Assembly (NCBI GenBank): GCA_010909165.1
Contig: VJWM01000375.1
Location: 1-28,526 of the forward strand
Direction of reading: 5' to 3'
DNA: 28,526 bases
DNA from: Anthoceros angustus
Lineage: Eukaryota; Plantae; Anthocerotophyta
This document shows, one piece after another, positions 8,333-28,526 of the stretch (position 1 is the stretch's first letter; every line of letters starts with the position of its first letter). The notes under the pieces are model-generated. The model did no database searches. It worked only from the letters and a program-made list of their open reading frames with translations, and had not been told where the DNA came from. Both the position numbers and the translations under genes were made by a program.

Positions 8333-8388
8333 GTGGCGGCCTCTGTAACCCGAGGTGTAACCCAACCTAACACCTCGCCGCAACCCAT

Positions 8389-8429
8389 TACACCCGGAGG
8401 GATTCGAACCCCAACCCTCGGTTCCGAAG
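8389..8429 (-). mobile_element. att site: 3' half of tRNA-Arg(TCG), anticodon loop to discriminator
   Basis: Minus strand CTTCGGA-ACCGA-GGGTT-GGGGTTCGAATCCCTC-CGGGTGTA gives anticodon loop, 3' stem, variable loop, T arm and acceptor strand. The 5' half is absent. Lies about 110 bp upstream of the integrase and is flanked by TGTAACCC x2 (8344-8363) and TGGTGCA repeats (8484-8527). Confidence 0.85.
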
Positions 8430-8537
8430 CTTCATGTTGGTGTCCGAAATGCCTTATTTTCTAGCCTTAGCTCTTCGCTGATATGCACCAAACGGGTATG
8501 ATTCGGGTTTGGTGCACGAATGGTGCAGGAGTAACAG

Positions 8538-9720
8538 GTCGGCGCGGCCGGCGAAACCGTGGTGGCGGAGGCAGACCGGGTGGTGGATGGTGAAGATCGG
8601 CGGCAAGCAAGCTGCTCGAAGGGCCGGACGACGAGACCCACCGCGTGCTGGCGGAGGAGAAGTTCGTCGAACTCCGCCGGTTGCACCGCATCACCCGCAA
8701 GCCCCGACCGCCCGCACGGCGGACGTGATCGAGGCGTTCCTGTCGTGGTCGCGGCAGCACCTGTCGGCCGACACCCACCGCGTCCACTTCTACTACTGCC
8801 AGTTGTTCGCCGAACACTGCGGCACTGTCCCCGCCCGCGCCAAGCCGTTCCACGTCACGCGCTGGATCGGCGAGATGATGTCGCCTGAGCGGGTGGAGCG
8901 GGAGATGATCCGACGGGAAGAATTATTGACCAGCGGGAGGGTATCCAAGCGACAGCTCGGCGGGGCACCGAGGATCTGGGGCGCGTCCACGGCGCACAAC
9001 GCCCGCGCCACCGCGTTCCGGGTGTTCGCCTGGGCGAAGGAAGAAGGTGTTGCCGGACAACCCGCTGGCCGGGATGAAGCGGCCGAAGCCGGCCCCGCGG
9101 CAGCGGCGATGACCGACGACGAATTTACCAAGCTGTACGAGAACGCCGGCGGGCTGTTCGCCGACTTCCTGCTCGCCCTGCGGAGACGGGGGGCGCCGAA
9201 GGAGGTGCGCGATCTGCGGTGGGAGCATGTACAGGACGATCGCTGGGTGTTACCCAAACACAAGACGGCCCAGAAGACGAAGAAGGCCCGCGTCGTCATC
9301 CTGACCGACGCGGTGCAGGCGATGATGGGGCGGCTGAAGGGCACACGCACGTGTTCCTGAACACCGAGGAACCCGTGGACGTTGAACTCGGTCCGCCTTC
9401 AGATGAAGCGGCTGCGGAGCGGCTGGGGTTGGCGGGCGACCTGTGCGCGTACCTGTGCCGGCACGGGTTCGGCACGCGGCCATCCTCAACGGCGTGAACC
9501 CGGCGGTGGTGGCCGAGCTGATGGGGCACACCTCGTTGGAGATGGTGGCCAAGGTGTACGTGCACCGGCCGACCAGCACGAACACCTGAAGGCGGCGGTG
9601 GAGAAGATCAACCCGACCGCCACGCCCGCGCCAGCCGCTGAGGGTTCAGCTCGGGGCGGCCCCGGTGAACTCGGCGAAGCAGGGGCCGAAGCCGAAACGG
9701 AAGGGGTGATGGGGTCAGGG
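8538..9720 (+). CDS. tyrosine recombinase / phage-type integrase
   Basis: AGGAG RBS. Arm domain ARPAKPWWRRQTGWWMVKIGGKQ. Catalytic segments L.ETGA(R)PKEVRDLRW, HKT, AYLCRHGFGTRAILNG, VAELMGHTSLEMVAKVYVH. Several frameshifts; ends approximate. Confidence 0.93.
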
Positions 9721-9948
9721 CCAATGCGGAGCGAGTCGAGCCAGCGCGGACGTCGGCCTCCCGGGCAGGTACTTTCCGCGTCCGCCCTTCGGGCCGGGAC
9801 GCGGTAGTGCGGCAGTTGGCCGGTGCGGCAGGCGGCGTAGACGGTGGACCGGCTGAGCGAGAAGCGGTCTTCCAGGTCGGACGGGAGAGCATCTCCGCGT
9901 GCGGGTGCGACTTCCTCTTTGCTCGATCTTGGCATCCGTGTCGGTCAT
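9608..9948 (-). CDS. excisionase-like HTH DNA-binding protein
   Basis: DLEDRFSLSRSTVYAACRTGQLPHYRVP...GRGKYL.READVRAWLDSLR, a MerR/HTH_17-type winged helix. Convergent with the integrase. Confidence 0.8.
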
Positions 9949-10526
9949 TCCCCGGCGTGTGGGTGAGTGGGGATTACCCGACGGCGTTCGAACTGCTCGG
10001 TGTGGTGGGAGATCGCATCACATTCAGCAACCGGCGAACGCGCACCCAGTCATGCACAATGCGAACCCCGTCGACCGTAGGCAACTCGTCCTGGGTCAAC
10101 GCATTCGCGAAGCGACCGCATGCTTCCGCCCACTCCTCGGCGGTCTGCCCGAGGGTGGCCGAGATGACCGGCACGAACTCCACGTACTGCTGATAGAGGC
10201 CGGGTACGGCACCCACACGCACTCGTCTTCGCACCGCAGCGGCGGGTCGTCCACCAGAAACACCAGCTCGTTCAACTCGGCGTCGGTGAGCGAACGCGGT
10301 TGCCCTCACCACGCACCCCTTTCCAGATATGGTCGGCGAGTGGCGCGGGCAGGAACGTCATGCCCGCCCCAGCCACGTCGGCATGTCCTGGGCGTGCCAG
10401 TCGTCGTAGCCGAGCTGCGGTAGGGCGTCGGGCGATCCCCAATTCGCGCAGATGCGGGCGGATCTGCCCCAGGACGTGGTCGCACAGGTCGACGTCGAAA
10501 TCGCCGAGTTCGTTCCTCACCATCAT
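9945..10526 (-). CDS. hypothetical protein, paralog A
   Basis: Joined frames: FDVDLCDHVLGQIRPHLR...PLADHIW...LTDAEL...DDPPLRCEDECVW..PGLYQQYV...LTQDELP...VHDW. Shares these motifs with 12047-12741. Confidence 0.7.
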
Positions 10527-10652
10527 TCCCCTTCAGGTTCGGTTCCCTCCACCCCTCACCCGTCCTGGTGAGTCATCAGCGGCGGAGGAGGGTTCAGTCG
10601 TAGCGTCACGTCCCGGCCGAGCCGAACGTTCGGCCCGGCTGGCAACAACCAC

Positions 10653-10687
10653 GCGTTCTCAGTTTCTCACTGAGAATCTGAGAACGC
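10653..10687. repeat. 35-bp near-perfect palindrome built of four TGAGAA units
   Basis: GCGTTCTCAGTTTCTCA-C-TGAGAATCTGAGAACGC: 17-bp arms with one mismatch, overlapping the ATPase stop codon. Confidence 0.8.
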
Positions 10688-11665
10688 CGGCACTTTCAGT
10701 TCGTCCAGCCGGCGGTACAGAGTCGGCTCGCTCTTGCCGGTCCGCTCCTTCCACAGGCGGAACCGCTCCTGCCGGTTCGCGATGACGGCCACCTCGCGGG
10801 CGACGGCCAGTTCCGCCTCCTTCTGCGTCGCCCGCTCGCCGAACGTCTTCACCTCTTCCAGGCTGATCGGCCGCTCCTTCAGGCGGGTGGACACCATGTC
10901 CCGCCAGTGGCACCCGCTCTGGCACTCCCGCCATTGCAGGTAGTCCTTGAAGGCGTTGATCAGCGTCCGCATGTCCATCGCCCGGTTCAGCCCGCGGGCC
11001 TGCTCGACCGGTGGTCGCACACCTCCCGGCACTCGGCCGGGTTCGCCTTCATCTCGCCCGCCCGGAACCCGTCGCCGGACACCTTCCGCATCAGGGCGAT
11101 CAACTCGTTGTCGCTGACGGCGAGTTGCATGTAGGCGATCCGGGTCTTTACCGCGTCCAGTTCGGGGATCTGCGGAACGGGCAGTTGGCGATCATGATGA
11201 TGCCTCGGTTAACACGGACTGGTGCTCCATCTTGTACGTCGTCCAGGTGACCAGCCGCTCCTGCGGCAGCCGCACGTCCTTCCCCTGGCCCCAAAGCGCT
11301 CCGCAGCACCCCCTGGCCGCGCTCTCGTTCAACAGTTGCTCCATGTCTTCCAGCAGGTGCACCGCGTCCGGGTAGGTCTCGCGTTGTACAGCCCGCGGCC
11401 GGTCATCCGGCTGTTGTACAGCAACGGCACCCGCCGGCGGTCCAGCTCCTGCACCACCGAGTAGCTCTTCCCGCACCCGCCGGGGCTGCAGGTAGAAGCC
11501 GGTGGTCAGCCCGTCGGCCACGCTGCCGGTGTAGTCGCGGACCATTGCAGCTTGGCTTCGAGCGTCGCCAGGTGCTTCTGGTCCGCCGCCGTCAGCGACC
11601 GCGGGCTGGTCCGCCGCTCGGTCGGCCGTGCCGACGGGCGATCCGTCCTTTCCATCCAAGGACAT
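10667..11665 (-). CDS. P-loop AAA-type ATPase with C-terminal HTH
   Basis: AGGAGGA RBS. Walker A region GFYL..PGG(C)GKSYSV, Walker B VHLLEDMEQL, sensor/Arg-finger-like GIIMIAN...LDAVKTR, and C-terminal TGKSEPTLYRRL. Confidence 0.8.
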
Positions 11666-12046
11666 GTCCGTCCTCCTCGTGTTTGGTGCGGCCCGCCCGG
11701 CTCAACTAACGGAGCGGTGCGACGGCCGCCACGAGCAGTTGGGAACCGGGACCGACCCGGCCTCTGCTCGCAGGCAGAAGAGTAACTGAGGGAGGGGAAC
11801 GCGAGCGTTCCCTCGTTCCCGGTTTTGGGAACAGTGGCGATGGGGTGAGTCAGGTAGAAGGGTTGTTACTCTTCGGTGGAATAGCGGGCGGGCGTTCTCC
11901 TGGCGAAGCCGTCGTACTCGCCCTCCCGTTCAAGCCAGCGGAGCACCTTTTCGCATCCGTTCTCCGCACCTGAGCCTCACCGATGACGGTTTCGACTTTC
12001 GCCGTCCGACCGTCCGGCATCGCTCGGATCACTCGCCTCAGTTCGT

Positions 12047-12741
12047 TCACGGGTCCATGAACCGTTCGCGAGAAAAGCCCATGTATTCGTCGACGACGGC
12101 GGCGGGCACGGGATTCGTGGGGTCGGAGGTGACCGATGGGTATGGGCAGCAAGCGGTTCTCACCCATCGCTGCCAGCAGGTGCCGAACCGCCCACAGCCA
12201 CTCGTGGACGGCGTCCATGCCGCGGGCCAAGGGCAGTTCGTCCTGGCACAGCCGGGCGGTGAAGGCCGCCGACTCGCTCGCCACACCTCGGCGGTAGCCT
12301 GGGACAGCTCACTGCGGATTTCAGGGAGGCACAGCACGTACTGCCGGTACAGGGCCGGGGTGGCACCACACGCACTCGTCCTCGCACCGCAGCGGCGGGT
12401 CGTCGAACAGGCCGGCGAGGAGGAGCAACTCCGCGTCGTTCAGGGGAGAACGGCGGGAGCATGTTCGCGTAGTGGCGGTCCACCAGCAGGGGCAACTCCG
12501 CGTCGTTCAGGGGCAAGCCGTGGCGTTGTAGTCCGCCTTGGCCCACAGGTGGTCAGCGAGGTCCGGGAGGGACGCCCCGGCCCAACCACTCCGGCAACGT
12601 CAGGCGGTGGAACCCGTCGTAGTCGAGTGCCGGCAGGGGCCGCCGGGGCCGTTCCGGGGGTTGGCGGAGGTGGGGCCGGACTTGCGCGAGGACGTGTTCA
12701 CACAAGTCGAGGTCGAATTCGTGCAGGCGTTCTCCGGCCAT
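12047..12741 (-). CDS. hypothetical protein, paralog B
   Basis: Joined frames: FDLDLCEHVLAQVRPHLR...LADHLW...PLNDAEL (twice)...DDPPLRCEDECVW..PGLYRQYV...LCQDELP...VHEW. Confidence 0.7.
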
Positions 12742-13592
12742 CGCTCACCCCTGTGTGTGATCTGCCCAACCCGAACGGGGTCGTTCTATGAGACCGTTGG
12801 CCGGGCGAGAGGCGGAACGCGCGATGCCTGTTGGGGCGGTACGGCTGTCGGCGGGTGTTGCTCGCGTGCAAGGTGCCTCGGCGGTCACAGCCGCCGCACC
12901 GCGGCACCGATAGAGAGCGAGGCTGCTCGCCGTGACCGGGACACCGCCCCTCCTCAAAAGCGCTTTACTTCTGAAGTGCCCACAGCCGCCCAGGCAGCGA
13001 TGTAAGAACACCGCTCCCTCGGAATGACGCATTCCGGCTTGGCCGGATCGACGGAGGGTTGTGATCACACCTCCCGTCACCGCCGATTCGCCTGGTCGGC
13101 AGCGGACGGCACCAGGGCTTCCCACACCGACCCCATCACCGCTGCTGTTCCGCTCGCGTCATCGAGGCTCCACTCGCTGACGGCGCGGCGTCGCGAACAC
13201 TCTTCGTTGCGGCCTGTCGCAGGGTTCGTCCCGGCGTGTCGAGTGCTCCATCGGTGCTGAGTTCCGTAGGTGGGAACCCTGGAACGTTCGCAATCCTGGG
13301 GCGTGGGGGTACAGTTCGGCGTACCGGGCGACGCACTGCCCGGAACAAGGTGCTCCGGCACCGGACGACCAGTGCGGTATGGCCCTCACCGGGAGGCTCA
13401 CCGAAAGATGGAAGGCGAGAGGAGGGCACCGGCGTGCGGAAGGGTGAACCGAGTGTGTGGTACGAAAATGCTCCCGCGATCGGTCGCCCTCGACGCGCTC
13501 CGGTTACGACCATCGGCCGGTCGGCCGGGGTGAACAAGATGGTGTCGACAGGTACAGGCGGTCAGCGACCGCCGCAGTCACAGGAGACGCTC

Positions 13593-14204
13593 ATGACCAC
13601 GACCACGAAGCGGAAACCGACGGCGAAGAGCGAGAGAAGGGCGGAGATGTCGAACGACGCCGAACTGGCGCGGATGGCCGAGCGAATCTCGGCCCATTAC
13701 AAGGGCTACAAGCAGCGGTCCGCAGTCGAACAGATGCAGGTCCACTTCGCCGCCGGGCAGGAGATGGACAGGCTGCCGAACATCATCTTCCGGGAGGATT
13801 GGCTCGACGGAAACCGCCGAGTTGGTTCCCGAACTGCCCGACCGCGAGCACGCCCGATGGCTACTCCGCCTGAGCGCTCTGGATCGGAAGAGCCGGGCGT
13901 TCATTCTCGAACAGACGGCGATCCCGATGAGCAACGGCACCTCACGCTCACCCACTGGGCGTGGGTGTTGGATCACCAGCCGAGGCCCAAAAGGGATTCG
14001 GGGTGGGATCCGAACTCCGCGAGGCTCAGCGGGAGTGGCAACTGCGGAACTCGACTGGCTCCGCCGAGGCGCGTCGGCGGCGGCCATCGAGCACATCGCA
14101 GGGGTGTTGAGGGATGCGGAGGTCCGACAGTATGAAAGTACGAGTCGGAGACGCGGAAGAAGCTGAAGAAGGTCGGGAAACTGATCGAGTCGATCTCGAT
14201 CTAG
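13593..14204 (+). CDS. hypothetical protein, putative DNA-binding (DUF1016-N/ParB-HTH-like segment)
   Basis: AGGAG RBS. MTTTTKRKPTAK...LTLTHWAWVLD...KRD...RKKLKKVGKLIESISI*. Followed by a cUUCGg hairpin (14231-14252). Confidence 0.6.
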
Positions 14205-14558
14205 TGGGCTTTCGGGTTGTGACGTCCCCAGAGCCGGGCTTCGGCCCGGCTCCCCGCCGTCACCCGCGGCGACCGGCTCGCCGCGAGAGGGTCGCTCGTT
14301 CGCGCCTTCCGTCCGTCCGATGAATCCTGCCTACGGCGGAAGCGACCGTCCTGGGGCGAGTCGAATCGAACGACTGGACACGACCGCCGGCCACACCCCG
14401 AACCACTCCCACCGCCTCAACGCCACACGGCGGACGACCGCCACTTCGGCCACGGCCCCTGAGTCCGCGACGAGCGGCCGTGACGGCGTGACCTCAAAGC
14501 GGAGATATCCGGCTGTCGGCCCCGCCGTTGACGCCGCACCGACGCGAATGAGGATGAC

Positions 14559-15495
14559 ATGACCGCCAGTAGCACCACGAACATCCGGCACATGCCCGCA
14601 CGCCGGTCGTTCTGCCGCCCTACGACCACTGGGAGGAGGCCACCGCATACGAACGCCGCGGGTGGTGCGTCCTCCCACTCCGCCCGAACGCCAAGAAGGC
14701 CCAAGTCCGGTGGAAGCCGTACCAGGAAGAACCCCGGCGTCCGAACAGGTCAGCGACTGGTGGAAGCGGTGGCCGGACGCCGGCATCGCCCTCGTCCTGG
14801 GGCCGGTGAGCGGCGTGCTGAGCGTCGACGTGGACGGGCCGGACGCACGCCGAACTGGTGCGGCGGCTCGGCGGCGAGCCGGTCGCCCCAAGATCCTCAC
14901 CGGCAGCGGCCTGCCGTGCCGCTACCAACTCCTGTTCCGACACCCCGCCGGCGTCGCCACGCGGTCGAAGATCACCCCCACCCGCAGTTGGAGTTCCGCG
15001 GAAGGGCGGGTTGAGCGTCCTGCCGCCGAGCGTGCACCCGTCCGGGCGGCGGTACAGGTGGGCGGTGGCCCAGTCGTCCGACGAGTTGGAAGTGCCGACG
15101 CTCCCGTCGAAGATCCTGGACGCGTTGCTCGCCGACGCCGGAGGGCGGGGCGACTATGCGGCAGGGACGGCGCGGCGGTGCCGGTGCTACAGCACCGGCT
15201 GGACGAGAGGCAGAGGCGATGGCGTTCATCGCCGGGCGGCTGACGGCGGTGCGGGCGGGGACAAGGCCACCTACACCGCCGCGTGCTGCTGGTCAAGGAC
15301 TTCGCCCTGTCGGTCGAACAGGCACTTCCGGTGTTGAAGACCTGGAACCGCACTAACTGCCGGCCGGCGTGGGCCGACGGCGAGTTGCTGCACAAGTTGC
15401 GGACGGCGGCCGGGTCGCCCGGCCCGCGGGGCGACTCCTCGACACGTCTCCGGGTCATCAGACAACGACCACCGACTCGCCGGGCGTGTCAATGA
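14559..15495 (+). CDS. bifunctional DNA primase/polymerase (Prim-Pol) with PriCT-type C-terminal domain
   Basis: GWCVLPL...WKPYQ...WWKRWPDAGIALVLGPVSGVLSVDVDG (DxD), TGSG, LEFRG.GGLSVLPPSVHPSGRRYRW; C-terminal WNRTNCRPAWADGELLHKL. Confidence 0.9.
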
Positions 15496-16854
15496 CGGGC
15501 GTCGGGTCGGGTCCGACCTTCCTCACGGCGGTGCCCGACTGGGTGGAGTCCATCTGGGGTGCCGCGGCCCCTGCGAGCCGGGCAAACGCCGGGGCCGCCC
15601 CAGAATCGCGAACGGGATCTTGCCTCTGTTGATGGCGAACGTGGTCCTGCAACGGGGTTCCGTCGTCCACCTCCCCGACGTGGCCCTCGCCCAGCTCGTC
15701 TGGGGCGGGGACCAGGCGTGGTGGCCCAGACGCTGGCGGGCGAAACTGGCCGAACGGCTCGGCCGGAAACCCTGAGCGACTGGTTCGTGGTCGACCCGCC
15801 CGACGCCCTGTCCGGGCGACTGTCCGGCGGCGGGCACCCGACACCGCCACGTGCGGTTCCGGCTGGTGAATGAGGACGCCCTGAACGACTTCATGCCGTT
15901 CGCCACCGACGGGTCAGCGACGAGCGGGTTCGTGTACGCCTTCAAGGGCCGACGGTCGCACGCCTCGGACCCCGAGGAGGCGAAGGCGAACACGAAGCGG
16001 ATCCGCCAGGCCGTCAGGCGCGGGGACTGGTGTGCCATCTACCTGCCGGTGTGGGTGTTCGGCCCGCGCGCCCTGCCGCCCGGCCTGCCGGGTGCTCAAG
16101 GCGGCGACCCGCGAGCTGACGCGGGAGCGGGGCCGCAACGCCCGCCGGCCCGACCACGCCGAACTGGTCGACGGCGCGATCACCCGCTGCTCGCCGACGG
16201 CTGGGCGTACGTCGGGTTCAACGGGAACGGCAGCCGGAAGGCCGCACTTCCACGGCCGCGGGTACTCAGTAGGGACGTGGATGAAGCGGGCCGGCTACCC
16301 GCACGACCCACGGCCCCGTCGTTCCGCGGGTCTGCGATGGGGTTCTTCACCGACCTGAAGGAGCTGGCGGACACGCTCGGCGTGGTGGCCGCGGTCCGCG
16401 TCCCCGGCCGCGGCGGGTGGCTGACCGCCGGCGAGGCGATGGGCGAGGTGGGGTGGTCGCGTCCAACCGTCTGGCCAAAAGTGTCTGGTCCGACTGTACG
16501 CCCCGGCGGATTATCCCGACGCGTGGCGGGCGTTTTCGCGTCGAGGCTGTCACTCGGCGGCATCCCGAGTGGCGAGACGGATGAGTCGGAGACGGAATGG
16601 GAACGGTTGCGACCTCCGAACACCTCGCCCGCTGGATGAAAGAGAGTGGGCTGGACGACTCCGCCCTCGCCGGCGAACTCGGCGTGTGCCGCACCGGTGT
16701 GCAAGTTCCGAACGGGCGCGAATCCTCGCGACGGTTCCTGAAAAGCTGGCCCGCTTTCGTCGCAACGCGGGGGTGTGACAAAACGGTCCCGAAACCCGGT
16801 CGGTGTGACAGAAAGTGTCCCGAAACGCGGCCGGGTGTGACAAAAGTGTCCTGA
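15492..16854 (+). CDS. large hypothetical protein with C-terminal XRE-like HTH; candidate replication initiator
   Basis: ATGA overlap with the primase stop. Joined frames include IYLPVWVFGP, RELTR, CPLL...YVGFNGNG...GRGY, LYAPADY and LARWMKESGLDDSALAGELGVCRT. Confidence 0.7.
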
Positions 16855-16857
16855 AAC
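16772..16857 (+). repeat. three tandem iteron-like repeats
   Basis: GGTGTGACAAAACGGTCCCGAAAC (16772), GGTGTGACAGAAAGTGTCCCGAAAC (16802) and GGTGTGACAAAAGTGTCCTGAAAC (16834); period 30-32 bp. Confidence 0.85.
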
Positions 16858-17381
16858 GAATTCGGCCACGGTCGCGAACGCCTGAGATTCCAGGCAGTTG
16901 CGCGACACCGTCCCCTACGTAGTACAAACGTAATACACCTCCGCCGGGGACGGCTCCTGGCGTCGCCGCCCCGGCTGCGAAAGAAGAAACACAAGGAGGT
17001 GGCGATGGAAAACCACCCGCGCCGATGCGAGCGGCGGGTGGAACGGGCGTCGCGAGCTGCGACCGCGACATCACCGACGGCATTCCGTCACGGCGAACAG
17101 AAATCATCCCGACGCCGACCGACTTCTCCGCCCGAACACGACCCGCGGTCGAATCCGTTCGTCGATCTGGACCGCCGGTGGTGGACGGGTGTGTGAGGCA
17201 TCGACAGTGCGAACCAAAGCGCATTTTGAATCTGCCAACCGCTAGTCGAGAGATTTCCGAGGACGAGGCGACGGGTCGGTAAAGTTCGTCGGCGACGGCA
17301 TCGCCCTCCCGACGTGGCAAGCGGCGTGCATCAACGGCGGCGAAGTGCTCGGCAACTCCTGTGAGCATGCCGATTCGCCGA

Positions 17382-17701
17382 AAATACCTGCGGCTTTCGT
17401 GCAGTACAGGCGAACCCCTGGCCCTGCCACAGCCCGAAGTGCGAGAAACCGGCCAAACCCACACCGCGAAACCGCGGAAATAGGTTAAGTACTTAACCTA
17501 ATAAACAGAGTTACTCCTTGTTTCCCTTTTGGGAAACGCAAGCGCGAGTTTATTAGGCCGATGCCTTCGCGCGCCGATCAAACTACTCACCGCCGCGCAT
17601 TTCGCGGCCGACCATTTACACCGACTGCATCGTGCTGACGACCCGACATAGCCAACCGTGGGTAAGGATTCAAAAGCGGTTTTGAACCGTCCCGCGACGT
17701 T
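17382..17701 (+). repeat. ~310-bp palindrome-rich non-coding element, copy 1
   Basis: Aligns by eye end to end with 20323-20630. Contains TAGGTTAAGTACTTAACCTA, CCTAATAAAC...GTTTATTAGG and TTCAAAAGCGGTTTTGAA. Confidence 0.9.
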
Positions 17702-17806
17702 ACGCACGCAGCCTGTGCAGTTCACCAGCGATGTCGAGCGCACGCAACTTGGTCACCGATCCGAGTCCCGAACGCACAATTTGCGTCACGACCCTGCTGT
17801 CAGAAT

Positions 17807-18354
17807 GGACGCACCGCCGATCGGGACATGGGATGCTGACGGCGATCGTCTGAAGAGGCGGATGTCCGCCCGCTACACCCACCAGGACAAGCTGGTCCTG
17901 CTCCGCGAGGAGGCGGCTCGACCTCAGCGTGGACACGGTGCGGAAGGCGTGGAGGTGTCGAGACGGTACTCCGCCAGGACATCGACCGGCTGGCCGACTC
18001 GGTCGTCGAGCACGGGCGGTGTTCGGCCGACCCATCTGGTTCGGCTACTGGCGGTGCCGGACAACACCCGCCGGGACAGACTCGCCCTCACCGCGATCGA
18101 GGAGCGGTGGGGGTGCGGAAGGTGGAGCGGGCCGTGCAGGGGCGAACCGCGGGCGGCGGCCGGGGTGGGGCGAAAGCCGGCGGTGCCGATGCCCGCCGCC
18201 GAGTTCCCATGGACGCCCTGTGCGACAAGTGGGAGCGGTGGTGCGCGGCCGCGAAAGCAATCCCCGACGGGCTGAGCGGGCCGGTTGAACAGGTGACGGC
18301 GGCGGTGGGAAGGTCCGCCGGCAGATCGCACGGCAACAAGCTGACAACGGGTAG
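17807..18354 (+). CDS. hypothetical protein with DUF1016-N/ParB-HTH-like segment
   Basis: Joined frames: LREEAARL..SVDTVRKAW...PTHLVRLLAVPDNTRRDRLALTAIEERWGVRKVERAVQ...DALCDKWERWC. Resembles the SHY..LL.V.D...R...W.VR.LER motif. Confidence 0.6.
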
Positions 18355-18515
18355 GGGTCACCGCCGGTGGGACTCTCCGCCCCGTTCGCTGCCCTGCCCG
18401 TCTCGTCGCCCGATGCCGAGGGCGCTCAAGAAGCCGTCTCCGACGCCACCCTGCTGGAAGGGTGGCGGTAGGATGGTCACGCCGGACGACCGGCGGGGCC
18501 GACGCCGGCGGGGCC

Positions 18516-19636
18516 TCACTTCCGCCGGCCGCCTGCTTCAGCCGCCTCGTAGGTGGCCGTCCGCTTGCCCTCGGCCGCCGCCTTCGCCGCCGCCTGCTGG
18601 TATTTCACGTCCTCCCGCTCACCGCCCCTTCTCGTACAGGAAGAAGCAGTTCGACCAGAAGTACGTCACCTCCTCGAACGGCCCCGGTCCCGGCGTACCT
18701 GTGGGCCATCTTCACCCACTGCTCGTCCAGTTTCTCGAACTCGGCCGACCTGATCCCGGCCCCGGCTTCGGGGTCACCCCTTCGGCCGCCTCCACCGCCG
18801 GCCGCCACGTCTCCTCGATGTACACCCGCTTGCCCGCCTTCCTCGCCTCCTCCGCCAGCCCCTTGTCCCCGTTCAGCGACTTGCCGTACACGTCCAGAGT
18901 GATCGTGTCGATCTCGTTCAGGCCGAACATCGCTTCAATCACCTTGCGGTCCTGGCCCAGCCCGCCCACCCCGACGCGGACCTTGGCTTCCTTCCGCACC
19001 GCCTCGGCGGTGGCGGCGGCGAACCCCGCCCACTCCGCCGGGGTGCCCTTGATGCCCAGATGCCGGGCCATGGTGGACGGCTCGTGCAGCACCACGAACG
19101 TGTCCGGGTCGAGGTCGGCGACCATCTTCGGAAGGCCGCCACGCACGCCTTCTGGTAGTCGGCCAGCGTCTTGGCCGGGCTGTCCCTGGTTGAGCGGGTT
19201 GACCGCCAGCCCCATCTTCTTCTCCGCACCCGCGCGCCACCCGCTTGTACGCCTTCACCGCCTCGGCGTCACCGGCCCCGGCCCAGAACGCCACCGACGG
19301 GTTCACGTCGACCCGCTTCACCCCGCCTCGGCGGGCGTCCACCGCCGCCAGCAGGTGCTCCACCGGGATGTGCTTGACGAACGCGCCCTGGGCGAAGATG
19401 AGGTTGACCCCGACACCGACCGGGTGGGATTTCAGCTTGGCCAGGCAGCCTCTTCCCTCCACTGCCGCCAACATCTCCTGCTCGTACAGGTGGGTGGGCG
19501 AGTGATCGCCGCCGGTCGGCTCGTGGCGGTTCTGTTCGGACGGGGTCGGCTTGTGCGGGCGGACGGGCGGTTGGAGCACAACGGGAACCAGGGTCAGAAC
19601 GACGGCCACACAGGGCACGAACGGAACGGGTTTCAC
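18516..19636 (-). CDS. secreted TIM-barrel glycoside hydrolase-like protein (clan GH-A-like)
   Basis: GGAGG RBS with GTG start and a hydrophobic leader (VPCVAVVLTLVPVVL). FVVLHEP (acid/base-like), ITLDVY, VYIEETW (nucleophile-like) and YFWS. Confidence 0.65.
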
Positions 19637-19734
19637 GAGATGCGCCTCCGGGGTGACGGGTGGAAGGTTCGATGCCGGTTGAACACACGGCCGCCGGCCC
19701 ATTACACAACGCGGCTGGAAATTCCTCCCGCACC

Positions 19735-20010
19735 TCACCCGCGACGCCGTCGAAGGGCGGTGGGGTTGCGGCGGTTGGAGCGGAGCGTGCAAGCGGCGAA
19801 CGGCACGCGGCGGAAGAATGGGCCGGCACACCGTCAGCCGGAGAGCCTCTGTGCTCTGGACGCCCTGTGCGACAAGTGGGAGCGGTGGTGCGACGGCCGC
19901 GGCGGAGAAGATCCCCGCGGGCTGAAGGCCATTATGGACCGGGCGACCGATGCCGTCGGCGAGGTTCGCCGGCGGATCGCTTACCTACAGTCGGACGAGG
20001 GCGTATGGGT
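19735..20010 (+). pseudogene. 3' fragment of a paralog of 17807-18354
   Basis: LTRDAVEGRWGLRRLERSVQ...LDALCDKWERWC...AVGEVRRRIA. Shares TGGACGCCCTGTGCGACAAGTGGGAGCGGTGGTGCG with the full copy. 5' half absent. Confidence 0.75.
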
Positions 20011-20011
20011 G

Positions 20012-20175
20012 TTAGCCGCCAGCCGGCACGAAGATAGTTAGCCGCCTCTTCGGCCGCACCCTTTGGCCTTCTTATTCGCCAGCAGGCGGAAGGTGCGGAC
20101 GGCGTCGGCCAGTCTCTTCTGGGCAATTGACAGCACCTTCTCGCGTGCCGCCCGCACCGTGCCGGGGCGCCCGGA
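20012..20175 (-). pseudogene. 3' fragment of a paralog of 23162-23697
   Basis: VRAAREKVLSIAQKRLADAVRTFRLLANKKAKG versus VRAAGKTLSVAQKRLADAVRTFRLLAKKKARG in the full copy. Confidence 0.8.
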
Positions 20176-20322
20176 TGTCGTCATCGCACCGGAGCCGACT
20201 CACGGGCGAACTGGAAGACGTTGATGGCCGGAATCGTCTCGGCGGCACGGATGCCGCACGGGAACGACGCCGTTGGTGAAGCAGGGCACGGCGACAACCA
20301 ACTTGTCGGCCTCTATACCCTC

Positions 20323-20630
20323 AAATCCGAGCGGCATTCGTGCGGTACGGGCGAAATCTCGACCCGCCCGAAGTGCGAGCAACCGGCGAAACCCCACACC
20401 GCGAAACCGCGGAAATAGGTTAAACCAACCTAATAAACGGAGTTACTCCTTGTTCCCTTCTAGGAACGCAAGGCGAGTTTATTGGGCGCCGATGCCTTCG
20501 CGGCGCGATCAAACTACTCACCGCCGCGCACCTCTCGGCCGACCATTTACACCCGACCGCGATGACGATGACCGACACGGCCAACCGTGGGTAAGGATTC
20601 AAAAGCGGTTTTGAAACGTTCCGCGACGTT
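20323..20630 (+). repeat. ~310-bp palindrome-rich non-coding element, copy 2
   Basis: Direct repeat of 17382-17701, with the inverted-repeat arms retained. Confidence 0.9.
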
Positions 20631-20752
20631 GCACCCGCGGCCGGTACGGTTCAGAGCGCTGATCAGCGATGGTTCGGACCGCCGCGACGACCTCACGAAC
20701 CACGAAATGGGTCTCGACTGACACAACTGCGCATTCTGTTCGGTCGAGTCGA

Positions 20753-21389
20753 TCACACACACCCGACGCTTGGATGAAGTCTGCTTCGATGTCGTAGATG
20801 CGACGCATCGCGCCAGCGATAGCCCTTCGTGCCGGGAGTACCTCACGCCTGGCGGCAGAGACACGCCTCTGGGCCTCCGTGAAGTTCCCCTGTTCCACCA
20901 AATCGAGCACGCCACCCGCCTCGGCCGTTAGCCAACTCGTGACGTTGTCAATGGCCTCCAACATCATGCTGTCGGTCAACGACATCTGGGTGAACAGCGT
21001 GTCCATCATAGACACCTCTTCGGGCTGAAGGATGCGCTTGAACCAAGGCGACAGGTATCGCGTGAAGATGTTATAGATCCTCCGCAGTGGCCACGGGCGG
21101 CGTTCATCCGCGCGTTGAGCTTACCGCCTTCAAGTTCGAGGAGCGTCGTTCGCTCGCCGGCGACCTCCTCGGGTTCGAGGGTCAGGGCAAGGTACTTCGT
21201 CAACTCCTCCTCGAGCGCCAGGTAGATCTTTGAAATCTCGCTGAGAACGGCCAACAACTTCGACGCCGCTGGATCGGGCTGACTGACCAGTTTGGACTTT
21301 ACGACTTGGATGAGTCCGAGCTTGTCCGAGATATCGACCAGATCCTTAGCCTGGAACATGGGTTTCGTCTCCTGGTCAGGCATTGTCAT
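20753..21389 (-). CDS. all-alpha-helical hypothetical protein
   Basis: GGAGG RBS. ORFs 21006-21389 and 20599-21015 join via ARGHC-RIYNIFTRYLSPWF. Likely stop near 20753. Lower GC than flanks. Confidence 0.75.
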
Positions 21390-21439
21390 GCCCCTCCAGT
21401 GCCCGAAGAATGCGTGCTAGCTATGGGTGGATGGCAGGC

Positions 21440-21770
21440 GAAATCGCCCACCAGGGCCGATCACGCCGAGACACTACTCTCATGACTCTCGACGTCACCC
21501 ACACGGAGGTGGTGGCACAGGGACACTGCCACGGACCCGGTGCTGGGAACTCGATGCGGAGGAACGGCATACCATGGCCTCGTCTTTGTGGATGACGGCG
21601 GCAAGATGGGGCTTACAGGTATCGTGGTGAGAACAAGGTGGCAAGCCAGGACTACGTCACTGGCATGGAAGCGACGGCGGCCGAGTGCTGGTTCTGTGGC
21701 CTGAAGGTGAACGACTACGAAGAGATCGACTACCTGCGGCTCAACGAGGAATCGAGTAGACCCGGATTGA
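21440..21770 (+). pseudogene. C-terminal gene remnant with CxxC
   Basis: ...DYVTGMEATAAECWFCGLKVNDYEEIDYLRLNEE; no clear start. Confidence 0.35.
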
Positions 21771-21791
21771 GCCGAGGGCCGGACGACCGCT

Positions 21792-22144
21792 TCACCCCGC
21801 CCAGGCACGATGCACCGGTGCAACTCCACCCAGCACGCCGTGATGTCGGTCGTGTCCAGGCCCAACTCGTCCGCCAGTTCGTAGAACCCCGGTCCCGGTT
21901 CCATGTCGCCGTCGCGGTGGACCACCAACGCGGTCATCATCCTCGCCCGGCTTCCGCCTCCTCCACCGACACCTCACGAAGGAACCACCGATTGAACGGC
22001 GGGTCGCCGGCGTCGAAGGGAGGGCGGTGATCTGCCCGGCCGGTCGGAGTACGCCATCATCCCGCACCGCGCCCGCCGGGCGAGGATCTCCTTCGCCTCG
22101 GCCTTCGCCGCCTCCCAGGCCGCGTCATCGAAGCCGTAAGGCAC
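21792..22144 (-). CDS. conserved hypothetical protein, putative winged-helix nucleic-acid binder
   Basis: GGAGG RBS with GTG start. MPYGFDDAAWEAAKAEAKEILA...MAYSD..GQI...LREVSVEEAEAGRGMMTALVVHRDGDMEPGPGFYELADELG...CW. Confidence 0.75.
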
Positions 22145-22161
22145 GTCTCACCTCCGCGGGT

Positions 22162-23044
22162 TCAACGGTCAAGGGATTGCTCGGATGGCCTCAAACGACA
22201 CGTTCCCGCCTTCAGTACCCGCAACTCACTCGAGCAACTCCCGCTCCGCACCAGACAGTGATGCGGCCGGAGGGGCCGATCAGCGCGAGAAACCGCGTAC
22301 GCCAGCCGACCAAGAAGAGATACGACACCTGCTCGATCGCGGGCAACCGCTCGGCCACCTCCGCCACCTTGTGGACGTCGATGAAGGCGACGCCGTGGGC
22401 CACGTCGAGGCGGACCGAGTAGCTGTCGTCGATCCACCGGTCTGTCCCGCGATCACCGGCCACCCCGCACGGCCCCCACAGCGTCTTGAAGCACTCCCAC
22501 ACCTGACTCTTGCATCCATTCTTGGCCCGCTGCTGGTCGATTGCCAGGACGGACTGGTAGAACTTGCCGGCCACGATCTCGATGACATTCCAGAACGCCA
22601 GGAACTTGTCGAGCGGGTCGTCCGTCGTCAGCCTGCGATACCAGCCGAGACTCCGCAACAATGCGGGACCGCCCTGCCTCAGGCTATGGGCCTCGTGGAA
22701 GGCGGCCTCGAACTCCTCCCGTTCGATGATCCGTTTGACGTCGTGACGCGGGGCGGAGGGCCGCTCCCGCTCGGTCAGGCTGAGGTCCATCGGCCGGTTC
22801 ACCGCGAGCGTGAGCGCGTCCAACATGTGGCCGAAGTAGACCGCCGCTGTGTACGCGATTACGTGGTCGGTGCCCGAGCGGTGACGGTCGCCTTGAGGCC
22901 GGAGGGGATGTTGGTGATTTCAATGTCGCTGTAAAACGGGTCGTCAACCCGGAACCCCTTCTGTTGGGTGGTGACGACCCGGCGTTTGACGGTGACCGGG
23001 CCGTCAACGTACAGGCTCACCTCCCAGGTGGGCGTATCCGACAT
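22162..23044 (-). CDS. HEPN-domain protein (MauJ/ApeA-like), putative RNase
   Basis: GGAGG RBS. LLRSLGWYR...DPLDKFLAFWNVIEIV (HEPN N-terminal helices with conserved E) and RLDVAHG (R-x4-H motif). Confidence 0.75.
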
Positions 23045-23161
23045 TCTCACACCTCCACCGCCGACCCAAACTATCATCCGGCCAGTGGCTTCGAGGACCA
23101 CCCCGCACGATGTGATCCCACACCGACCGAGATCCAACGCAGGAACACAATACTGGTGGGG

Positions 23162-23697
23162 TCAGCCGGCGGCCGGCTCGAAGATCTTCAGCTTCCGCCT
23201 CGGCCGCACCCCTCGCCTTCTTCTTGGCCAACAGGCGGAAGGTGCGGACGGCGTCGGCCAACCTCTTTTGGGCGACGGACAGCGTCTTTCCCGCGGCCCG
23301 CACCCCAACGTGTTCCGTCGGCTGGGCGGCCATCACCGCCGCCGGTGGTGGGCCGGTGCGACACCGCCACCAGCGACCCCACCACCCGGTCGAGCACGGA
23401 CGGCGTGTCGCCCACCAGCTCCGCCCGCAGCGCGGCCGCCTCGTCCCGCGCCGTCTCGGCCAGCGGGTCGCCGCCGCCACGCCCGCCTTCGGCCCCTTCG
23501 GCCGCGCCAGCGCCTTGAACTCCCTTTCAACTCCGGGAACACCTCCACCCACTTGGCGATGCTGTCCACCGCCTCGGGTGCCCCTGGCTGGCCCGCACGC
23601 CGAGCATTTTGACCATATGCCGCGCCCCGGCCACCGTGCCGTACCGCCGCCGCGGTTTCGCCCGGCCGTCGCGTCCGTCGCCCCTTCCTTTCGCCAT
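23162..23697 (-). CDS. hypothetical protein, helical, element-associated (gene X)
   Basis: GGAGGAG RBS. ...LRAELVGDTPSVLDRVVGSLVAVSH...AQKRLADAVRTFRLL...RKLKIFEPAAG*. Confidence 0.7.
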
Positions 23698-23991
23698 GAC
23701 TCTCCTCCACCGCCGGTAGCGGTGCCCGGTGAGCACCAGCCAGGCGGCGGACAGGATGAACGCCCGCGGACAACTCGGCCGCCAGCCGGTCGGCGTCGGC
23801 GGTGGCCTCCCGCTCGGTGCTGACCTGGGATTGCACGTGTAATTTGGTCTGCCGCCGCTGTTCGACGGCGGCGGCGGCCAGCTTGCCGGCCGTGCTGCGG
23901 CCGTGGTACACCTTCTTGACACCGAACGGGGTGCGAACGGACTCGTAGAAGTAGCCGGACGACGGCCCCGCCGCTTCTTGTCCCACCCCAC
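23690..23991 (-). CDS. hypothetical protein, basic (gene Y)
   Basis: GGAGG RBS with GTG start. MGWDKKR...GYFYESVRTPFGVKKVYHGRSTAGKLAAAAVEQRR...LVLTGH.Y..W. Translationally coupled to gene X. Confidence 0.7.
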
Positions 23992-24337
23992 GGCCGATCC
24001 TCCCGGTTGCACCACCACTTCGGACTACCCGCATTCTCCTTGATGACGGCGTGACGTCGCCAGGGCAACGACGGCGTCGAGGCGACCGAGTTGTACCACA
24101 TCAACAAGTCGGGCACACAGAACGTGGTGGACGCCAAGAACCTGTTCGACGCACTCCGCACGCAGCAAGCGATCCAGGCGCCAAACACCGTCCGGCAGAA
24201 AATTGGTCGAGTGACTGTACGGGACGCCGCTGGCAGCAAGCGAAGGCGGTGCCGTGGTGGGCTATTCGGCCCGGCGAATAGAATGTCCGTTGAGTGACCG
24301 GACCCATACTTGCCGGTCGCATTCAGCCTGCTGAGCA

Positions 24338-25262
24338 ATGGCTGAGCCGGCGGTGCGACGTGAACGCCGAAACTCCACCTCCCGTACCTGAGTACCTTCT
24401 CGAAAGCAGCCGAGTTGAGTAGTTTCACCGCCGCGGCGAAGGCGCGGGGGCTGACACGGCGGTCAGCCAACGCATCCAACTTCTCGAACGTTCACTGAAC
24501 GTGAGCCTGTTCTCCGCCGTGGCGGGCGGGTAATTGTCACCGAGGCGGGGCAGACGCTGTACGCCTACGCCCAGCGGATCGACGACCTTCTCCGTGAGGC
24601 ACGGCGGGCGGTATCGGGGCACGAGACGCCGCCGCCGGCGACCTCGACATCGCCGCGAGTTCCGTTCCCGGAGAACACCTTCTGCCCGCCGTACTCGCCG
24701 GGTTTGGTCGGATGCACCCGCACATCCGGGTGAGGGGCCTGTCACCGACAGCCTGGCCGTGACCACACTGGTCGAGCGGGCGAGGTGAGCGTGGGGTTGG
24801 TCGGGCGGAAGGTGGACCGGCCGCACCTAGAGTTCCGTTACCTGGCGAGCGACCGGCTGGTGCTGGTCGCACCGGCAGATCACCCGCTCGCCCGCAAGAC
24901 ATCGGTGACGGCCGACCAACTGGCCGAACACCCGCTGGTGGTGCGGGAGGCCGGATCGGGGTCTCGGCATTGCTTCGAGCAGCGCTGGCGCGGGTCGGCG
25001 GTCGGTCGCCGACTTGCGGGTGGTCCTCGAACTGGGGAGCAACGAGGCGATCCGTGACGCCATCCGTAAGGGGTCGCCGTTCTGTCGGTGTATGCCTTCG
25101 ACTGTGACCACGATGCCGGCCGACTTGTGGCCCGTCCGTTGACGGCCTTTGCAGCGAACGCGACATGTTCCTGGTGTTGGACCGCCGCCGGGTGTTGCCC
25201 TGCCATCCCGCCTGTTCTTGAACTTCATCGAATCCCATCCGATTCCGGCTCATCCGTCATAA
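24338..25262 (+). CDS. LysR-family transcriptional regulator (CysL-like)
   Basis: LSTFSKAAELSSFTAAAKA.GLT..AVSQRIQLLERSL HTH; IAASSVPGEHLLP; REAGSGSR; LELGSNEAI. Confidence 0.92.
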
Positions 25263-25362
25263 GCGGCGCTGCCCGCCTCCGATCCTATCAGCGAAGGCCG
25301 CTCACGCCCCGTTCCGCCTCAGTGTAACTTGCCCCAGACGGTTCCCACCTTCCGGAGCGGCA

Positions 25363-25831
25363 ATGATGTTACGGACCATTTCCGGAGTGGCGTTGGCGGC
25401 CGCACTCCCCCGTGCCCCTGTCACCCGGCCACGAGAAGGAGAAGAACACGACGGCGCGGCCGTCCACCGGCCGGACGACCTCAAGTGGCAAGACGGCCCA
25501 CCCTCCCTCCCGCCACCAAGATCGCCGTTCTCGAAGGCGATCCGTCCAAAGAGGGGCCGTTCGTCTTCCGGGTCAAAGTGCCGGACGGCTACCGCATCCC
25601 GCCCCACACCCACCCCAGGCCCGAACGGGTGACGATCATCTCCGGCACCTTCCACCGGGCATGGGGAGGCGTTCGACGAGAAGAAGGGCGGCCCGCCGGC
25701 ACCTACGGGACGTGGCCGGCGGGGATGAAGCACTTCGTCTGGGTGAAGGGCGAGACGGTGGTGCAGTTTCACGGCGACGGCCCGTGGGTGATCGAGTACG
25801 TCAACGCGGCCGACGACCCCGCAAGAAGTGA
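25363..25831 (+). CDS. secreted cupin-domain protein (DUF4437-like)
   Basis: Signal-like start; LEGDPSKEGPFVFRVKVPDGYRIPPHTHPRPERVTIISGTF...PAGMKHF...HGDGPW. Confidence 0.88.
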
Positions 25832-25915
25832 CTCGCGCGGGTGTGAGGTCCGTGCAGCCGAGTCGGGGACCGCTTCGCGGTGGTCCGCTCCGCAATCACA
25901 CGAAGGGGGACCGAC

Positions 25916-26498
25916 ATGCCGTGGGTTCGACCGTGCCCGACGATCAGGCGGCCGGGTTGCTCGTCGATGTCTACCGGAAGCGCGGGGAGCGGGCCGGGAA
26001 GGTGCCCAACATCACGAGGTTGCAGAGCCTCCGGCCGGAGACGACGGCCCGCGGGTTCGACCTGTACCTGCCAGGTGATGGACGCCCCGACCGGCATCAG
26101 CCGGTGGGAGCGGTGCTCGTCGCCACAGTCGTGTCGAAGGTGAACGGCTGCCTGTACTGAATGGAGTCGCACGAGAAAGACCTCCGGTCGGTGGTCGCGA
26201 GCGATTCCCAGCGACAGGCGGTTCAGGAGGACTACCGCACGGCCGGACTGACCGCCCGTGAGGTGGCCCTGCTCGACTACGCGGTCAAGCTGACAAAGAT
26301 CCCCGCACGGTCGGTTGCGCCGACCTCGACGCTCTGCGGGAGGCCGGTTACACGGACGAGCAGTTGGTCGATGCCGTGCAGTGCATCGGATACTTCAACT
26401 TCATCAACCGCGTCCTCGACGGCCTGGGAGTTGACCCGGAGCCGGGAATGCGGTACGCCGATCCGCCGGCCGGGGACGCATCGTGGAGGCGACAATGA
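25916..26498 (+). CDS. AhpD/carboxymuconolactone decarboxylase-family peroxidase-related selenoprotein (CxxU)
   Basis: ...LVATVVSKVNGCLY-TGA(26158-26160)-MESH...LLDYAVKLT...GYFNFINRVLDGLGV. The TGA sits at the second Cys of the CxxC..H motif and is followed by a SECIS-like hairpin. Confidence 0.88.
26161..26208 (+). promoter_or_regulatory. candidate bacterial SECIS element
   Basis: Lower stem GGAGTCGC/GCGATTCC; upper stem GACC-T-CC/GG-T-GGTC with GGTC apical loop 25 nt after the UGA. Confidence 0.7.
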
Positions 26499-26814
26499 AA
26501 CTCGGCCTCGTGATTTGCTCGAACGACCCGGAAACCGTGTGGAATGCGTTCCCGTTCGGCCACCACGCCATCAAGCACGCCGGAGGTGAGGTGAGGGTGT
26601 TCCTGCTCGGTCGCGGTGTCGAAGCCGAGTCACTCGACGCCGGGCGTTCCGGGTCAACGAACAGATGCACCAGTTCGTCGCCGCGGGGAACGATCCTCGC
26701 ATGCGGCACCTGCCTGAAGAGTCGCCAGGCCGGGGAAGCGAGATATGCCCGGTTTCCACTATGGCCGACCTGCACAGACTGGTCGTCGCGTCCGACAAAG
26801 CGCTGACCTTCTGA
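26495..26814 (+). CDS. DsrE/DsrF-family sulfur-relay protein
   Basis: ATGA overlap. MKLGLVICSNDPETVWNAF...VRVFLLGRGVE...ILACGTCLKSR...CPVSTMADL..LVVASDKALTF*. Confidence 0.9.
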
Positions 26815-26861
26815 CTCATTCTCCGTGGCCGACGACGGCGACGCCCTCCCCAGGTGCCAAC

Positions 26862-27660
26862 ATGACCCCGCCCGTCATCGACATAGATGCTCAGGGCCGC
26901 CTGAAGGCGACCTGGATGGCGGGTGACTTCGGACTCATCGCCAAGAATTACGAGTCCGGCGGCGGAGTTCGTCCGCCGTCTCGGACTCGTCCCCGGTGTC
27001 CAGGTTCTGGCGTGTGGAACTGGGAATCTGACCCTGCCGCCGCGGACCGGGGCCGAGGTGATTGGGGTGGATATCGCTACCAACCTCCTGGATCAGGCTC
27101 GAAGCCGGAGTGAGACCGAAGGGTTGAACGCACGGTTCGACGAGGGGATGCCGAGAAACTGCCTTATCCTGATGCGAGCATCGACGCCGTCATCAGCATG
27201 TTCGGGGTGATGTTCGCGCCCGCCGGAACTCGCAGCCGCCGAGTTGCTCCGCGTCTGCCGTCCGGGTGGTCGAGTCGCGCTGGCGAACTGGACCCCTGAC
27301 GGGTTCGTCGGGCAGATGTTCAAGACGATTGCCGGCCACGTCCCGCCGCCGGCCGGGGCCTCGCCACTCCTGTGGGGGACGAGGCAACGGTCCGCGGGCG
27401 ATTGGGTAGCGGGAGTTCTGACCTGCGGACAACGCCCCGGACGATTGCGTTCGAGTTCCCCTTTCCCGGCGGAGGTGGTGGAGTTCTGGCGGGTCTACTA
27501 TGGCCCAACGAACCGAGCGTTCGAGGCCCTGGCCGACGTTCCGGCCAAACAGGCGCGCTGCGGGCCGACTTGGAGAAGCTGTGGGCGAACCAGAACCGAG
27601 CGTCGAGCGGGGCACGAGTGGAGTTTGGAGATGGTCGCGCTCAAGGCTCCCACGCGATGA
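26862..27660 (+). CDS. class I SAM-dependent methyltransferase
   Basis: [11 protein letters not shown]...VL(D)ACGTGN...GVDIA...GDAE.LPY...SMFGVMFAP...[16 protein letters not shown]. Confidence 0.9.
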
Positions 27661-27734
27661 CCGAACGGGGTAAGCTGTGAGCGGTCAGGGCGATAGCTCC
27701 ATCGTTTTCACCTGCGGTCTCCTCCTACTGCCCA

Positions 27735-28085
27735 ATGAGCGGGTCATCATCCGACAAGCCAGGAGTAATTGCCCCGCCCCGCTGGTGTACCGTGTGGGGC
27801 TTGGGGCGGGCTTCTGTTCGACCGGCTCGTTCCGGGTTACGAGCTTCCGGGTGGGGTTTTCCAGATCGTCGGCCTCGGACACGTCCCGATCGGCGTCTTG
27901 CTCCTCGCCTGGGCGGTCGTCTCGATGAGGCGGGCGAAGACGGCGGTCAACCCGTACAAGCCCTCGTCCGCGGTCGTCAGGAGTGGTCCATACCGATTCA
28001 CCCGGAACCCGATTTACCTGGCCGACGGCGTCTTGTACGTCGGCCTCTCACTCGCGCTCCGGTCGGCCGCGGCTTTGGTCCTTCC
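27735..28085 (+). pseudogene. isoprenylcysteine carboxyl methyltransferase (ICMT/PEMT-family) membrane protein, 3'-truncated
   Basis: MSGSSSDKPGVIAPP.LVY...TAVNPYKPSSAVVRSGPYRFTRNPIYL. The C-terminal EE..L...FG..Y segment is absent. Confidence 0.8.
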
Positions 28086-28460: not shown

Positions 28461-28526
28461 GGCACCTCAAGATCCTGGGGAGGGACGATTCAGGCGGGGC
28501 TTCGGCCAGCGGGATCACGGTATCGG

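Follow-up and report, generated by a model that had tools for sequence, protein, structure and literature searches.

A predicted primase–initiator fusion with probable iterons on a tRNA-integrated island of planctomycete type

How might an integrated element copy its excised form with a primase of its own and no recognisable helicase? The question is raised by an island on contig VJWM01000375.1 of the Anthoceros angustus assembly GCA_010909165.1, of which the whole stretch from position 1 to 28,526 (hereafter the window) was analysed. A sequence-only reading had described 8430–24000 as a self-replicating element with a mostly unknown core, in which a primase gene was coupled to a separate helix-turn-helix (HTH) protein gene. 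That description of the core was wrong: primase and HTH protein belong to one gene, here called Rep, which joins an archaeo-eukaryotic primase (AEP) to a domain whose predicted fold resembles that of the iteron-binding initiators of plasmids, and which ends in direct repeats that are probably iterons. The island is real tRNA-integrated DNA of a planctomycete-like bacterium, and the contig is probably a bacterial passenger in the plant assembly. We consider it likely that the window covers the left portion of a tRNA island in which Rep, together with about three 31–32-bp repeats, replicates the excised circle without a helicase encoded by the island.

The Rep gene, its predicted fold and its repeats

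The primase part of Rep matched Prim-Pol (PF09250, E 4e-12), as the earlier reading had proposed. Rep is a single open reading frame (ORF) of ~750–790 aa, interrupted only by sequencing errors. A search with the part previously read as unknown led to protein P0001 and through it to 393 representatives, many of them 765–944 aa long, while a further relative, P0003, spans 14630–16764 (tblastn). At locus L001, whose DNA is 72% identical to 14710–16975, the corresponding ORF is intact (793 aa), and its alignment to 14624–16779 of the window gave 458 of 703 identical residues with 22 frameshifts and no stop. A domain of ~350 aa lies between the PriCT-like helices, for which PriCT_1 matches were weak and seen in three relatives only, and the XRE-type HTH. 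No P-loop family was found in the Rep chain with Pfam or PHROGs.

In the predicted structure, the whole 340-residue middle domain aligned with three initiators, namely R6K pi (2NRA), F RepE (2Z9O) and domains 2–3 of RctB (5UBF), with moderate Z and with two winged helices in the RepE/pi arrangement. These models suggest that the middle domain folds like plasmid iteron-binding initiators. Comparison of the family profile with Protein Data Bank sequences gave matches to the HTH region only, among the 60 matches listed. A LAGLIDADG assignment for a Rep fragment (ESM Atlas clusters at 0.75) was rejected as below the lead level of the tool.

The tandem repeats noted earlier behind the HTH part were confirmed, and they overlap the 3' end of Rep, so that direct repeats lie beside the gene, as they do with iteron initiators of the double winged-helix (dWH) type. 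Similar arrays (32 bp × 2.7–2.8) follow Rep at L001, L038, L047 and L014, with a different sequence in each. When 220 bases around the stop codon were scored for periods of 18–45, the best period was 31–32 in 11/16 Rep loci compared with 15/361 other genes (p 6e-11), although about half of the 11 loci are weak when taken singly. Further downstream, a short near-palindrome was aligned at the same distance in 5/5 close loci and is followed in the window by a GC-rich hairpin. Three sites with three-turn spacing and a downstream signal would fit an iteron origin, and the repeats are probably iterons, as judged from sequence.

The middle domain was found in 11/252 genomes of the family and in 8/401 of the class (4 of them new), and in 1/401 sampled genomes of the phylum, the centre itself. 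Plasmid and phage searches with DNA and protein gave no match to the window, and no relative was confirmed in IMG/VR (two pattern scans) or the JGI metagenomes. Among the best 150 proteins, 147 matched the domain profile: Prim-Pol stands in front of the domain in 10 and behind it in 2, an AEP-TOTE-like primase accompanies it in 3 and a third primase-like region in 24, and 108 have none, a class that mixes fragments with real losses, many of these proteins being short. The third type, judged by its DxD and His motifs and by a weak match to LigD, may also be an AEP. A quick tree built from 80 domains required 9 changes in N-terminal Prim-Pol for 10 rows, 7 of them forced by well-supported branches, which suggests that the primase has been exchanged repeatedly. 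In the permuted members (L045:4283-6826, P0126 and P0147) the dWH-like domain is followed by the HTH, with Prim-Pol at the C-terminus.

The surroundings of Rep vary likewise. It lies with a tyrosine integrase and tRNA-Leu, tRNA-Met or tRNA-Phe in G151, G247 and G067, with tRNA-Val, tRNA-Pro or tRNA-Asn in G257, G405 and G402, and with a serine recombinase in G387. In G002 an integrase and an AAA_25 helicase are present, the latter upstream of Rep, and in G087 and G059 DnaB_C stands directly upstream of a primase-less Rep. Taken together, these contexts make a helicase an optional companion.

The tRNA junction and the island chassis

Contigs assembled from public sequencing runs branch exactly at both ends of the proposed att core, the 3' half of a tRNA gene, which confirms the island's left junction. 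In run X2 the core contig had a depth of 22.7 and its arms 8–10.5, and a 3159-nt contig that ends in the core carries a different arm, also present in X8; in run X4 the core is joined to the tRNA 5' half. One att is thus observed, and the second would follow from this contig branch and depth. The tRNA was read from its sequence as Arg(UCG), and in a relative the same integrase has tRNA-Arg(tcg) as its neighbour. Neither the X2/X8 far arm nor the tRNA 5' half was found in the window, nor did tRNA and Rfam scans find an intact tRNA or a second att arm there, and the earlier placement of the element's end at 24000 was not borne out; one X2 contig runs through that point (20588–25375). The far-arm motif had no match in the JGI metagenomes, and a search of 11 stitched regions from relatives yielded no att pair. 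Integrated between two cores, the island continues past position 28526. It displays the features given for class iii of the cryptic integrated mobile genetic elements in PMC5862659, namely att repeats and a recombinase of the tyrosine or serine type, located at a tRNA gene in many cases.

Two assembly signals were set aside. The X4 contig, which runs from flank through core to tRNA 5' half, has the appearance of an unoccupied site and was not counted as evidence of excision, because an assembly graph may collapse a core of 41 bp and X4 leaves 8444–8681 uncovered. Differences in contig depth in X8, lower outside 8.3–23.6 kb, were likewise not used. A degenerate second copy of the att core lies at ~88–117 (also noted at 120–240 of the window), and 118–8388 could represent an earlier island that occupies this tRNA site in tandem. 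Just outside att, 7961–8350 (-) encodes a ~125-aa coiled-coil protein with a C-terminal Cys motif (phrog_1244, E 4e-6).

Contigs of four public runs match the window with few letter differences and many gaps (for example 47 gaps in a 2213-nt contig on 14331–16496), the window being without bases that these short-read contigs carry, so that deletion errors run throughout. An intact 339-aa relative of the island's AAA-type ATPase, P0153, aligned over its full length with 323/328 identical residues and 7 frameshifts. Given these data, the frameshifts are not evidence of decay. They do make motif scans unreliable here, and a Walker A scan missed the motif of the AAA gene itself. Near-identical DNA is present in runs from several studies. 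The best named relatives are planctomycetes, namely a Gemmata sp. for the primase, a Fimbriiglobus sp., and Paludisphaera for the ATPase; the genome carrying L001, G001, is placed in the same family as the Fimbriiglobus genome, which we take to be Gemmataceae.

The core genes are syntenic elsewhere. G001 carries att, integrase, excisionase and AAA gene on one contig and Rep, repeats, a DUF1016_N-like gene, Y and X on another, while G117 has the same order on a single contig with three unrelated ORFs in the place of Rep; G069 and G235 share this alternative module. Between L001 and L078, identity is 93% and 86% on the two sides of exactly the Rep-plus-repeat segment. Homologs of Y occur in 86/252 family genomes, far more than Rep, and this spread together with the exact replacement of the Rep cassette places X/Y, the DUF1016_N-like gene and the ATPase in a wider chassis, into which, by sequence comparison, replication cassettes are swapped. 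The alternative module (L078:4685-7257, L086:14613-17255 and L079:10809-12200; one ORF has a Crp-like winged HTH) may be a second undescribed replicon. Its interpretation as a split Rep was rejected (hhalign probability 1.3 and 0.3).

Proposed replication, alternatives and precedents

In the proposed scheme, integrase and excisionase would excise and circularise the island. Rep would then bind its own repeats, three helical turns apart, and open the adjacent DNA, and its AEP part would prime at the downstream palindrome or hairpin. Host polymerase and host helicase would elongate as in iteron plasmids, whose Reps are described in PMC4980987 as melting a DNA unwinding element and recruiting host DnaB. 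The excised circle would replicate only transiently and would thereby be stabilised, as in Salmonella genomic island 1 (SGI1), for which PMC7826253 describes transient Rep-driven replication. This scheme builds on the att junction, the integrase, the one continuous gene, the repeats with their conserved period, the synteny and the cassette swapping; in it, the island would be self-replicating.

Some observations weigh against activity. No attP was seen in run contigs, and their depth, a weak measure, gave no sign of amplification. The motif II residue of the primase is Gln in the window's clade, a residue that section 8 of PMC5862659 gives as tolerated in some AEP families. At the sequence level, the middle domain matched neither Rep3_N/Rep3_C nor another initiator profile in Pfam, PHROGs or NCBIfam, and the isolated domain had no Foldseek match at E<=0.001 when that tool was used alone.

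The earlier statement that the window has no helicase, relaxase or capsid match stands: none of 9 probes for helicase, relaxase, capsid and portal matched at E<=0.05, none of 5 helicase or ATPase probes including AAA_25 matched the window, which is the element's left part, and Pfam found none of these gene classes in 252 open frames of 7644–25256 or 14 frames of 24598–28518. For the same reason, that only the left part is covered, the label "capsid-less and conjugation-less" is unproven for the whole element. Possible, if rather unlikely, is a larger element, mobilisable, conjugative or linked to a prophage, with the window as its left arm and its transfer or virion genes past the right edge; this would be compatible with the same Rep mechanism and would only remove the word cryptic. 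The far arm lies outside the window, a TrwC relaxase is encoded ~28 kb from the Rep remnant of G059, and tail, capsid and portal genes lie ~18–37 kb from Rep in G387, beyond the serine recombinase. Against it, the selected ORFs scanned in G117 (35 kb of a 44.6-kb contig) and around Rep in G002, G247, G257 and G235 contained no type IV secretion system or capsid genes and showed defence, metabolic and insertion sequence (IS) cargo; in the window, metabolic cargo follows from 24300 onward, and no att pair in any relative places transfer or virion genes inside. A phage satellite of the phage-inducible chromosomal island (PICI) kind, living on a planctomycete helper phage with the fused Rep in place of the usual primase-helicase, is the least probable account. 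The order of integrase, excisionase, regulators, primase/Rep and origin resembles that of satellites, and the AAA family is largely viral; yet no terminase, packaging or interference gene and no capsid was found among the window's frames, more than 20 kb with metabolic cargo are present, and the two IMG/VR scans yielded no relative.

A helicase might instead be hidden in plain sight. With Rep and iterons as proposed, the AAA/HTH protein could be an unrecognised helicase or loader, or a helicase gene could lie beyond 28526, which we regard as improbable. P0153 has Walker A, Walker B and further conserved blocks, its best structure matches, weak and limited to the Walker A region, are primosomal loaders of the DnaI type (E 0.04–0.1), its look-alike clusters are mostly viral or planctomycete, and relatives place AAA_25 or DnaB_C upstream of the same Rep. 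However, no helicase family matched the protein. Its gene lies on the strand opposite to Rep and shared with the excisionase, and since it is present in G117 despite the different module there and did not turn up in the loci fetched for the other Rep genes, it tracks the integrase chassis and not Rep. Slightly less probable still is a decaying passenger island with a primase that may be inactive, in which a winged-helix regulator or some other DNA-binding module makes up the middle domain and the repeats act as operators. The moderate Z, the Gln in motif II, the duplicated and partial genes of the window, the absence of visible amplification and the breakage of several relatives by IS elements would agree with this. 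The alignment of the whole domain, and not of one winged helix, with three initiators, its repeated joining with primase-like regions of three types, or its position next to DnaB_C, which points to replication, and the near-identical DNA in several studies all argue the other way.

The helicase-free primase-initiator Rep, which we prefer, has partial precedents. It shares with R6K pi, F RepE and RctB the predicted tandem winged-helix fold and the repeats adjoining the gene. It differs from them in lacking a sequence-level match, in a middle domain of ~350 aa that has insertions and a conserved Cys/His motif, in the fusion of this domain with an AEP primase and an XRE-type HTH, and in 31–32-bp repeats that overlap the 3' end of the gene. 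The dWH replication initiators are described as a superclade, with winged-helix (WH) and AEP initiators as evolutionarily distinct classes, in the bioRxiv preprint 10.1101/2024.09.03.610885 (2026). ColE2 Rep, RepE/RepS and PrimHYQ, as described in PMC5862659 and PMC4538821, likewise hold AEP, PriCT and HTH in one chain and have tRNA-integrated kin; the Rep primase is PF09250 and not Replicase (PF03090), and the dWH-like domain separates PriCT from HTH. According to sections 11 and 12 of PMC5862659, helicase-less AEP-PriCT-HTH initiators and cryptic tRNA-integrated AEP elements exist, section 12 naming ColE2, RepE/RepS and PrimHYQ replicons as lacking a helicase, so a helicase-less island is not new in kind. 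An integrative planctomycete-type island with its own replication logic therefore stands from the earlier reading, whereas the exceptional status it gave to the missing helicase does not. RSF1010 (IncQ) is described in PMC4538821 with a RepA helicase, the AEP primase RepB', the initiator RepC and ssi sites; Rep shares initiator and AEP primase but has them fused, with no helicase gene found in the window and integration at a tRNA gene, and the relative G002 also resembles RSF1010 in having an AAA_25 helicase upstream of Rep. By analogy, Rep may be the RSF1010 logic of initiator and AEP primase compressed into one chain.

PriRep of the Staphylococcus aureus pathogenicity islands (SaPI; PDB 7PDS) is grouped with the PolpTN2/PrimQH type, an AEP with a C-terminal winged helix. 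Compared with PICI and SaPI, no fused or adjacent helicase was found for the Rep primase, and its predicted fold is dWH-like. In section 12 of PMC5862659 the winged helix of PolpTN2 and PrimQH is proposed to read the origin; there a single one follows a PriL-like or ATPase/helicase domain, whereas in Rep a predicted two-WH initiator stands in that position. SGI1 is likewise an integrated island, with plasmid-type RepA and oriV, but is described in PMC7826253 without a fused primase and as dependent on an IncA/C helper. We found no AEP–dWH fusion and no account of these islands in the literature, although preprint supplements, WHRepDB and subscription papers may hold such proteins. What appears undescribed is the primase-initiator fusion with its own repeat array, on an otherwise ordinary class of island. 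Tentatively, and with somewhat less than even confidence, we propose an undescribed initiator class of planctomycete islands that unites an AEP with a RepE/pi-type dWH, two lineages otherwise taken as alternatives, and in which origin choice, melting, priming and the start of synthesis would proceed without an element helicase and perhaps without host primase; the dWH scaffold would serve for docking, and different primases, at one end or the other, or instead a DnaB helicase gene, would have been captured by it repeatedly.

This reading would bridge WH-type and AEP-type initiators. It also offers a function open to testing for several hundred proteins of a family that lacks annotation and is overlooked by current replicon typing (no match in Pfam, NCBIfam, PHROG or plasmid collections). 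From locus to locus the repeats diverge along with the protein, providing natural cognate and non-cognate pairs for the study of iteron specificity. Planctomycetia have few vectors, and the ~2.5-kb cassette might serve as a replicon for them.

Feature coordinates, other genes and cargo

Table 1. Features of the window, with coordinates, strand and basis.
Feature	Position	Strand	Basis or remark
att core, 3' half of tRNA gene, left junction of the island	8389..8429	-	run contigs branch at 8389 and 8429
Tyrosine integrase	8587..9706	+	299/365 identical to intact L076 integrase; 10 frameshifts, 0 stops
Paralog 1, probably with C-terminal HTH_17 excisionase	9744..10523	-	aligns with residues 1-258 of 277-aa L078 protein; no stop
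P-loop/AAA+-type ATPase, 339 aa, C-terminal HTH-like motif, phrog_1250	10670..11665	-	intact P0153
Paralog 2, no excisionase part detected	12132..12741	-	
Uncharacterised gene	13496..14148	+	weak homolog in G117, 70/201 identical
Rep: Prim-Pol (PF09250), PriCT-like helical bundle, predicted double winged-helix with conserved Cys/His motif, XRE-type HTH	14590..16854	+	start approximate
About three direct repeats, probable iterons, overlapping Rep 3' end	16771..16857	+	31 bp x 2.8
Short near-palindrome, then GC-rich hairpin; candidate melting or priming signal	16908..16978	+	alignment and DNA fold, no shuffle control
Non-coding segment	17382..17724		duplicated at 20323-20653, 82% identical
DUF1016_N-like gene, copy 1	17853..18313	+	Pfam match weak, in relatives
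DUF1016_N-like gene, partial copy 2	19683..19969	+	
Second Y gene, remnant	20021..20187	-	
Gene Y, ~184 aa, no family	23171..23683	-	coupled to X
Gene X, ~105 aa, no family	23701..24015	-	coupled to Y
Probable cargo off the window's edge: LysR regulator, cupin, methyltransferases	24300..28526	+	

The integrase, the AAA/HTH gene between two paralogs and the X/Y pair were all recovered as the sequence-only reading had them. Its excisionase was right as to the HTH_17 domain, but not as a separate gene: in the window it probably forms the C-terminal end of paralog 1, in agreement with the relatives (L078:9604-10434, L076 and L079), where HTH_17 is fused to a ~190-aa uncharacterised domain, of which the window has two copies. 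The two DUF1016_N-like genes are present, the Pfam match being weak, below cutoff and seen only in relatives. A FEN1-like identity for X was rejected as likely chance, FEN1 helices being matched only weakly (E 0.004).

Internal duplications in 17382–20653 and 20008–23304 (82%, 79% and 72%) involve the non-coding segment, the DUF1016_N-like gene and the end of Y, and suggest stacked captures from a sister island. Between the two DUF1016_N-like copies, 18460–19640 (-) is a cargo gene with an apparent hydrophobic leader and no Pfam family. The gene at 22215–22919 (-) has a weak MauJ match (E 0.008, below cutoff), and we presume that it may be HEPN-like defence cargo. Among relatives, the Rep islands of G257, G387 and G405 (L120-L121, L124-L125 and L129-L130) share an operon for a PD-(D/E)XK nuclease, an AAA ATPase and DUF2997, and L052 and L055 of G059 carry a long CRISPR-like array with a period of ~71 bp, 16–24 kb from the Rep remnant.

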